64,000 bases of DNA from the NCBI RefSeq assembly GCF_024223415.1, contig NZ_CP100500.1, one strand, 5' to 3'. The translations under genes and the position numbers were made by a program. The notes beneath the pieces are model-generated. The model had not been told where the DNA came from. It did not search any database and worked only from the letters and a program-made list of their open reading frames with translations. Numbering within the stretch: the stretch's first letter is position 1; each line of letters begins with the position of its first letter. Source of the DNA: Escherichia coli (lineage in GTDB: Bacteria > Pseudomonadota > Gammaproteobacteria > Enterobacterales > Enterobacteriaceae). Positions 62,007-63,701 of the stretch are shown in pieces.

Positions 62007-62294
62007 ATGTAGAGATTATTTTATCGATATATCATTGAGTTATGTTATTCAGCATCACTGTTCAGGAGGCTCAATAGCGGGGTACTATACCATAACAACA
62101 GGAAGCGCCTGTCTCATTGCAAAAGAAAATTGAGATCCTCTCAAGGCATGAAGCTCTCACGAAGTGATGGAAATAATCTTATTAGCCGTTAGCTTTGTTA
62201 AGGCCAATGATAAACAATCCAGGTTCGACGATAAATAAAAATCACACATTAAACTCCGGTGATATCTCTCCCTGCTAATAGCACTGATAGAGAA

Positions 62295-62325
62295 AAAAGG
62301 ACCCAATAAGCATTGGGTCCTTTTA
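62295..62325. terminator. Rho-independent terminator downstream of yjbM
   Basis: aaaaaggacccaataagcattgggtcctttt stem-loop with flanking A and T runs. Confidence 0.65.
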
Positions 62326-62361
62326 TATAATGCCTTCCATACTATCGAAGAACTTCACATA

Positions 62362-63108
62362 TTATTTCTCCGATTTAACCCCGAATAAATCATAAATTAA
62401 TTTAGAAGTGTCTGTAAGTATTTTAATCTTTTCCTTTGAGTTTGGGTCAAACGACTTAGCAAAGTCAATTAATTTCGATGCAGCATCTCGCATTTTGCTT
62501 AAAATATCAGGGGCGAGCGTTCCTTCATTCACCAGATGTGACATCTTATCCAGATAGCCATCAAAATTCATTTCTCCCCCATCTGCCAGACGCTTCATCT
62601 CTCCCAGGTACTTCTTCATATCACGTTGAGATAACTCTTCAAACTGAGCTGTCAGATAGTTCCCATTATGATCATTAATCTTCACTTTTTCTGCCCCTGC
62701 TAAATCTGTGTAGGCACTAGAATATGAAAGTGAAATTAACAGTGAAGCGAATAATTTTAAGCTGTTGTCATCATATTTCTGACATGCATTAACAAACGTT
62801 AAAAAACCAGAACCTATTGCTTGCAAATGTATATTCGCTAAAGGTTCATTATCTTTAGATTCCTCATAAAATAGCTGAACCGTGGAGGGAAGGCCATTCT
62901 TGGTTTCTACATCAAAAGTATATCGTTCTATGGGCGTTGCATCTTTATTACCCTCAGTATTACATATACTATTAACCGCGAAATGAAAAATAGCCCGATC
63001 AACAACTGATGCAATAAATTCACGATCGTTTAAGTCCTCATCAGTGCAATCTCCAATATACTCATTGACCCACACTTTGAGATTATTTATTTGCTCAATT
63101 AAAAACAC
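62362..63108 (-). CDS. yjbM: Uncharacterised AT-rich protein YjbM
   Basis: 248-aa ORF in an AT-rich islet between dusA and zur, as recalled for K-12 yjbM; no domain recognised. Confidence 0.7.
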
Positions 63109-63383
63109 ATTTTTTTACGTGCATGCCATAAATTATGAGTGATTCTTTGAATAAACAAATCTATTTTTGCAATAATTATATCCCGATGACGCAGCGCTGA
63201 ATAATCAATAGACTTACCATATATATTATTTAATTTATCTTTGATTGCACCTCTATTATCTAATTTATCGTTGGTTGCATCTATATTATCTAATTTATCT
63301 TTGGTCGCATCTTTATTATCGAATTGATTTGAATTGAGTGTTTTATTAAAGTATCCAGTTGCACCGGGTATTATCTTCAACAT
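63099..63383 (-). CDS. yjbL: Uncharacterised small protein YjbL (repetitive KDKLDN motifs)
   Basis: 94-aa ORF overlapping the yjbM start; contains tandem (D)ATxDKLDN repeats encoded by imperfect ~24-bp DNA repeats. Confidence 0.6.
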
Positions 63384-63701
63384 GATTCATCTACCTTTTT
63401 TGTCGTACCGTGTCCTCCTTATAAGTGTTTTGCCATCTGGTAACTATCAAAAATCGCTCATAATTTTCTGAACTACAGGTATGCGAACACCCCCAGTTAA
63501 ATAAATAGCGAGTTAACTTGAAGCAATTTATTTAAAAATGAATTATTAATTATTATCGTGTTGATAATGGTACTGCCAGGCAACACAACATCTTACCTAC
63601 AAAACAGAAAAGCAACATTACGGCAACAATAAGGGTTCTCGGTGTTTTTCCTGGAACATGGTAAAGTAAGGACATTCTTAACCCCCACTTTGAGGTGCCC
63701 G

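Follow-up and report, generated by a model that had tools for sequence, protein, structure and literature searches.

A single DUF2713 gene read as yjbL and yjbM in an AT-rich islet between dusA and zur of Escherichia coli

The two halves of a DUF2713 gene

In a 64,000-nucleotide (nt) stretch of Escherichia coli contig NZ_CP100500.1 (assembly GCF_024223415.1), which as a whole we call the window, an AT-rich islet lies between dusA and zur and holds two overlapping open reading frames (ORFs) that go by the K-12 names yjbL and yjbM. The gene order is dnaB, qorA, pspG, dusA (minus strand, start at 62000), the islet, and zur (start at 63702), and the locus (61950-63750) is 99.9% identical to that of E. 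coli strain S51 and only 93.1% identical to that of K-12 MG1655. The GC content dips to 28-40% at about 61900-63700, against 50-57% in the dusA/qorA flank, and amounts to 35.4% for the islet and 34.1% for the gene compared with 52.8% for the whole window, which confirms the low-GC islet proposed in the original prediction, a note made on this DNA from its letters alone. The coordinates given there for the two ORFs (94 and 248 amino acids, aa) also proved exact. The same prediction took these to be two overlapping uncharacterised ORFs, and this did not hold; we read them as the halves of one gene of the family DUF2713, split by a frameshift in which a run of eight adenines (A8) has become seven (A7). 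The features on which this reading is built are the following.

61913..63634, no strand assigned: AT-rich islet, 1,722 bp, 35.4% GC (pairwise BLAST against sequence type 131, ST131, and GC content)
62362..63108, minus strand: C-terminal part of the gene, the "yjbM" ORF, 248 codons from GTG, carrying the entire Pfam DUF2713 match
63099..63383, minus strand: N-terminal part of the gene, the "yjbL" ORF, 94 codons from ATG 63383, with a premature TAA at 63101-63099
63110..63116, minus strand: A7 homopolymer (T7 on the plus strand), the frameshift site (allele comparison)
63218..63325, minus strand: in-frame 30-bp tandem repeat, 3.6 copies, with 3 full decapeptide units (Tandem Repeats Finder, TRF)

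The two ORFs share 10 nt on the minus strand, and the yjbM frame is -1 relative to that of yjbL. Both frames are open together only over 16 nt (AAAAATGTGTTTTTAA), directly after CGT, and the shift must therefore lie in the A7 run or in the T5 that follows it. One A added to the run produces a 340-aa ORF that is 97-98% identical to an intact protein of 339 aa (P0001), and the junction peptide of this repaired protein matches intact database proteins of 318-340 aa exactly; some of the clusters of intact proteins of 328-340 aa contain 1,100-2,600 member sequences each. In addition, an exhaustive HMMER search yielded distant homologues (P0149, P0154, P0155, P0162, and P0166, 22-27% identical when aligned), and each of these is a single protein. 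The block that is best conserved in the family, AKLDxFLQKITxGLW..SEK...L..L.D...R.IF, straddles the frameshift site, with the invariant residues K73, D75, F77, and W86 on the "YjbL" side and L102, L118, D120, R130, I132, and F133 on the "YjbM" side. With intact homologues colinear across the junction and an ORF that is restored by a single nucleotide, yjbL and yjbM are, as judged by sequence comparison, one DUF2713 gene that is broken by a frameshift in the window, i.e., two long-standing K-12 y-genes should be read as one frameshifted gene. Automated annotation had already flagged the locus in this way: the Prokaryotic Genome Annotation Pipeline (PGAP) places a single coding sequence (CDS), "DUF2713 family protein, frameshifted," over both ORFs in S51, K-12, and six other strains, and in S51 this CDS joins the equivalent of window positions 62362-63383. 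The literature that we searched neither mentions nor describes DUF2713.

The larger ORF had been predicted to have no recognisable domain, which was wrong, since the repaired protein matches Pfam PF10897 (DUF2713, a family with no assigned function) with an E value of 1.4e-140 and 467 bits, against a gathering threshold of 27 bits. This match runs over all 235 profile positions (1-235) and, in the repaired protein, over residues 104-340. The K-12 YjbM fragment was evidently the basis of the Pfam model, which omits the N-terminal ~100 residues, part of the conserved block (K73, D75, F77, and W86) included. The predicted structure consists of a disordered, polar N-terminus of ~60 residues and a body that is mostly helical; the AlphaFold predicted local distance difference test (pLDDT) values are about 26-33 for residues 1-60 and stay under 50 as far as residue 63. 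Searches of the protein against NCBIfam and PADLOC returned no matches (PADLOC: 0 families at E <= 1), the sole PDB sequences that a profile search recovered are helical proteins designed de novo (E >= 0.19), and PHROGs holds only two unannotated families, equivalent to YjbM and YjbL. All named matches are from E. coli, except one partial sequence labelled Klebsiella, and a pattern scan of 100,044 species-representative genomes yielded no confirmed relative.

Several other leads on this protein were followed and dropped. A phage origin received no match in a tblastn search of a phage collection, and the seven "plasmid" matches that might have pointed to a plasmid origin are chromosomes, very large replicons, or chromosomal fragments. 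Genes called yjbL or yjbM on Klebsiella plasmids are unrelated genes with the same name, nearly all literature matches for yjbM concern a (p)ppGpp synthetase of B. subtilis, and the placement of YjbL in a response-regulator family (PMC12871917) finds no support in Pfam. A few distant relatives lie on short contigs rich in insertion sequence (IS) elements or plasmid-like genes. For example, on metagenome contig ERZ15610516 NODE_7954 (L016, 3842-4777), a distant homologue adjoins a gene for a 311-aa protein with a SopD-like N-terminus and C-terminal pentapeptide repeats, an architecture like that of type III effectors, and a KfrA_N gene beside the 311-aa gene suggests a plasmid. Another distant relative is located near hok/gef and an AIDA-type autotransporter.

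Variation at the adenine run and the tandem repeat

The state of the run was surveyed in 5,426 complete E. coli genomes, with A7 and A8 counted as exact matches to a 42-nt and a 43-nt core, respectively. The DUF2713 gene, scored by a match to its 5′ third, is present in 4,145 of these genomes and absent from 1,281, ST131 among them. Of the genomes, 2,235 have the exact A7 core, which is the broken form, and 932 have the intact form, with the exact A8 core; a further allele, in which a G precedes seven adenines (G+A7; for example in O157:H7) and which is in frame, occurs in about 650, and alleles ~30% divergent in DNA (L013 and L014) in about 230. An evenly spaced sample of 60 rows, 56 of which were informative, gave the same proportions as the whole-collection counts, with A7 in 32 rows, an apparently shorter run still in 1, and an in-frame gene in 23. 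All nine G+A7 alleles in this sample are in frame, with no comparable excess of frameshifts. Frameshifted alleles have the context CGT-A7-TGTG, and intact alleles have CGT-A8-TGTG, CGT-G-A7-TGTG, or no run; all 12 frameshifted alleles examined are A7, and every intact allele is A8, G+A7, or lacks the run.

Both states also occur on the same background. Allele L015 (A7) has no other difference from L026 (A8) across a CDS of ~990 nt, and the same is true of L027 (A7) and L028 (A8) across ~990 nt, pairs in which homopolymer assembly errors are possible. More distant pairs include O104:H4 (A7) and L009 (A8), which are 4 nt apart, K-12 (A7) and L006/L024 (A8), which are 17-18 nt apart, and the window allele and intact L023, which are 18 nt apart. 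The flanking haplotypes that carry A7 number at least four, and A8 also occurs on two of them. Since A7 and A8 occur on otherwise identical alleles, the length of the tract has changed repeatedly, and through this toggling of an 8-nt coding homopolymer, about 41% of the sequenced E. coli genomes have the broken form, a point to bear in mind when pseudogenes are counted, when pan-genomes are drawn up, and when true homopolymer variation has to be told from assembly error. Two chromosomes of K-12 size (4.64 Mb), CP123272.1 and CP125369.1 (L020 and L021), have A8 and were considered as K-12 revertants; they carry a different, non-K-12 allele with 60 substitutions and so are not reversions. Presumably they are recombinant or engineered K-12 derivatives.

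The smaller ORF had also been predicted to carry an imperfect tandem repeat with a period of ~24 bp and a copy number that could vary. The imperfect repeat is there, but the period is not: TRF gives 30 bp (10 aa) over 63218-63325, with a score of 153, 84% matches, and no indels, and a repeat search finds three 51-nt copies at 30-nt spacing. A check of the copy number among strains showed that it does vary: the window has 3 full units, K-12 has 2, and O157:H7 has 1, which corresponds to protein length classes of about 340, 330, and 320 aa. Alleles with 3, 2, and 1 units are split 13:34:9 in the 56-row sample, and L009 (3 units) and L029 (2 units) differ by only 4 nt. Only these three length classes were seen, i.e., the repeat is variable, not hypervariable, and it sits in the N-terminal segment of predicted disorder (pLDDT below 50, residues 1-63).

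Decay beyond the run is limited. Of 13 frameshifted sequences, the window included, 11 need only one A for a full ORF; the second lesions are a start codon changed from ATG to ATA in L007 and a further 1-nt deletion in L022. The ratio of nonsynonymous to synonymous polymorphism (pN/pS) is 0.23-0.59 for pairs of intact alleles and 0.30-0.83 for pairs with a frameshifted allele, which also include two pairs with no synonymous differences; the higher values fit a relaxed constraint on the frameshifted sequences, on small counts. Synonymous divergence (dS) between the common alleles is about 0.11-0.13. In strains ETEC1738 (L013, 415-1371) and EC17CM2 (L014, 413-1417), we observe two further allele classes at the same locus, intact and with no A run, which differ from the common alleles by ~30% at the DNA level (about 50% identity in amino acids) and from each other by 23%, and which are found in about 4% of genomes. 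So deep a divergence between orthologous loci points to replacement of alleles or to diversifying selection. From the disordered, polar N-terminus, the variable repeats, the deep allelic divergence, and the contexts of the distant homologues, our best guess, with low confidence, is that the DUF2713 protein interacts with a host or a competitor in the manner of an effector.

The islet and the 5′ end of dusA

Homology between the window and ST131 ends at 61912 and resumes at 63635, so that 1,722 bp here replace 133 unrelated bp there. The replaced segment takes in the first ~29 codons of dusA, and the N-terminus of DusA differs between the two haplotypes. In ST131, zur is directly beside dusA, and in the Escherichia outgroups the gap between dusA and zur is about 200 bp with no DUF2713 gene, which implies that the islet is a derived insertion in a subset of E. 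coli. The further features of this region are as follows.

61913..62000, minus strand: islet-derived 5′ end of dusA, ~29 codons (translation comparison; PGAP start at 62000)
62295..62324, minus strand: intrinsic terminator of the yjbLM transcript, with a perfect 13-bp stem, a 4-nt loop, and a T-rich tail
63384..63701, no strand assigned: AT-rich region upstream of the gene, divergent from zur (sequence)
63579..63552, minus strand: promoter-like site upstream of the gene

The islet-borne 5′ end stands in place of an ancestral DusA N-terminus (MPAESHTVYPAYRFSI). The ST131-type motif PAYRFS[IV]APMLDW is found as well in E. albertii, E. whittamii, Escherichia sp. E1V33, Citrobacter amalonaticus, and two other genera, and the ST131 counterpart of the dusA 5′ end is at 5868-5913 of L003. 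Most E. coli, K-12 included, would thus express a DusA whose first ~29 residues and promoter derive from the insert. Replacement of the dusA 5′ end is a published hallmark of elements that integrate at this site (Farrugia et al. 2015, PMC4482086), and we infer, solely from the replaced 5′ end, that the islet may be what is left of an element that used the attachment site at the 5′ end of dusA. If so, this site leaves permanent scars, such as the changed DusA N-terminus of most E. coli. In strain RM14516, an Stx2a prophage lies between yjbM and dusA (PMC10562709), and in E. coli elements still make use of the dusA attachment site. Among side observations at this site, strain XPFI_3_2 (NZ_CM146018.1; L010, 1-51) has a dusA 5′ fragment annotated as "incomplete" beside the DUF2713 gene, with its C-terminus missing, and in three further strains the neighbour of the DUF2713 gene is labelled "tRNA-dihydrouridine synthase" and not dusA, which suggests that another element has integrated into dusA in those strains. 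In ST131 strain 751 (L003, 12-3288), genes for an Nramp-family metal transporter and an FAD-dependent oxidoreductase lie directly upstream of qorA, where S51 has dnaB, a further case of presence or absence of genes near the locus.

The DUF2713 gene has a Shine-Dalgarno-like AAGG ~11 nt ahead of its ATG at 63383, and the two arms of its terminator stem form an inverted repeat with 100% complementarity. A constitutive RpoD (sigma-70) promoter is given for yjbLM in K-12 (PMC3946193), and a section on H-NS complexes in another paper treats the K-12 zur/yjbL interval as a "promoter island" (PMC3661553). The original prediction implied a link to Zur from proximity, which we could not substantiate: a degenerate Zur-box-like pattern, with one mismatch allowed, has 0 matches in the window, and the islet was inserted between dusA and zur, so that the adjacency of the DUF2713 gene and zur is incidental and reflects the insertion site. 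A candidate GcvB RNA in the islet (63499-63655, minus strand) reached 20.8 bits (E = 0.086), where the gathering score is 42, and is almost certainly a chance match. An 18-nt inverted repeat (63130-63147/63449-63466; 89% complementary, arms 301 nt apart) lies on either side of the leader and the 5′ part of the gene, and may be due to chance in AT-rich DNA.

A probable polymorphic pseudogene and its alternatives

We consider it probable that yjbLM is a polymorphic hot-spot pseudogene, i.e., one horizontally acquired accessory gene of E. coli that is broken in the window. The intact gene encodes a protein of 318-340 aa and contains two slippage-prone elements, the A8 run, located inside the most conserved block of the family, and the 30-bp repeat. 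In the window, loss of one A from A8 ends translation from ATG 63383 after 94 codons and leaves the other 248 codons in the -1 frame. The tract would be a recurrent and probably reversible mutational hot spot, and the outcome a widespread polymorphic pseudogene, representing neither two genes nor programmed decoding, with a broken allele that is likely to be largely non-functional and an expression that may normally be kept low by H-NS silencing. These findings do not overturn current understanding.

Several observations weigh against this interpretation. A7 is the majority state, at about 70% of alleles with a pure A run, and most A7 alleles have both halves open and no further lesion, unlike an old dead gene; together these leave room for selected, reversible switching or for a split form that retains some function. 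Long-read-only assemblies typically err in homopolymer length, so that some A7/A8 calls, including the pairs with zero other differences, could be artefacts; against artefacts as the main origin it counts that A7 is present in every K-12 assembly sampled and in the O104:H4 genome, and that all nine sampled G+A7 alleles are in frame. The counts are inflated by laboratory derivatives of K-12 and by clonal sampling. With regard to acquisition at dusA, we found no tyrosine integrase beside the dusA 5′ end, the only long ORFs inside 61913-63634 being the two DUF2713 halves, and a search for ~21-bp attL/attR direct repeats, or for a dusA 5′ remnant on the zur side, gave local alignments no better than those of shuffled sequence.

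The alternative that survives best, although we regard it as unlikely, is a contingency (phase-variable) locus, in which A7/A8 is a selected, reversible ON/OFF switch for a costly or antigenic protein and the N-terminal repeat, itself variable, would be a second source of variation. A simple repeat that shifts the frame is located inside the ORF, and both of its states are found on identical alleles; the OFF state is frequent and yet the ORFs are preserved, allelic diversity is high (by dS, and by allele classes about 30% divergent), and the gene has been lost or replaced in entire lineages. However, many lineages have dropped the switch and kept the gene, namely those with G+A7 (~650 genomes) and those whose divergent alleles lack the run, and what is demonstrated are differences between strains, not heterogeneity within a strain. 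Moreover, A8 is short for a phase-variation tract in mismatch-repair-proficient E. coli, where the expected slippage amounts to toggling over evolutionary time rather than within a population.

We give little credence to a functional split gene, in which YjbL (94 aa) and YjbM (248 aa) would both be made and associate into an active protein, with termination-reinitiation at a GUG overlapping the stop codon of yjbL (AUGUGUUUUUAA) as the source of YjbM. In its favour, residues 85-96, where the break is located, form a linker modelled with low confidence (pLDDT below 50) that connects two predicted helices; the GTG start is 7 nt ahead of the yjbL stop, and both halves are intact in most A7 alleles. 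Against this, the break bisects the most conserved block of the family, secondary lesions are present in some A7 alleles, and YjbM is essentially undetectable in K-12, at 0.002 parts per million (ppm) and with no Shine-Dalgarno sequence given (PMC9841429).

Programmed recoding, in which A7 would be decoded to the full-length protein through a -1 shift of the ribosome or an A added by slippage of RNA polymerase, seems to us highly improbable. The shift that is needed is indeed -1 (or +1 nt in the mRNA), and the sole overlap of the frames, over 16 nt, contains the A7 and the T5 run. Homopolymeric A runs support low-level transcriptional slippage, but efficient slippage needs runs of about 9 or more. 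In the zero frame the site reads CGU AAA AAA AUG, with a heptamer, U AAA AAA, that is not the canonical X XXY YYZ; no stimulatory structure lies downstream (minimum free energy -14 kcal/mol, z = 0.13 against shuffles); and the shift site is not conserved, since relatives are in frame with A8, with G+A7, or with no run.

Two independent small genes in an operon, the view of the original prediction, in line with the separate K-12 names, the treatment of yjbLM as an operon in the literature (PMC12218254; PMC3946193), and the few RefSeq records that annotate yjbL as its own CDS, are left with next to no chance, being refuted by intact single proteins in thousands of sequences and by distant homologues that are colinear across the junction.

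A broader proposal, which we hold to be decidedly doubtful, is that a selected ON/OFF switch at A7/A8, or decoding of A7 by slippage or as a split protein, controls an H-NS-silenced, effector-like protein restricted to E. coli. If this were true, an arms race with a target in a host or competitor would lie behind the variable decapeptide repeats and the deeply divergent alleles, and yjbLM would be a rare contingency gene with a repeat tract in E. coli.

Compared with known systems, the locus shares with dusA-associated integrase (DAI) islands an insertion at the dusA 5′ end with replacement of the 5′ coding end, at a site that prophages occupy in other E. coli strains. The integrase and flanking repeats of such islands are missing, and the insert, at only 1.7 kb, carries one cargo gene; it is at most a decayed remnant. 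With dnaX and the IS3-family transposases, yjbLM has in common an A-rich run at the junction of overlapping frames in a -1 relation, and it differs from them in having no canonical heptamer, no stimulatory structure, and no conserved out-of-frame arrangement. With the contingency loci of Haemophilus, Neisseria, and Campylobacter, it shares a coding homopolymer, frame switching by +/-1, and both states on the same allele, and it also has an in-frame repeat of variable number; in contrast to those loci, its tract is only 8 nt long and is interrupted in many lineages, so that it compares to them as a slow evolutionary toggle or hot spot.

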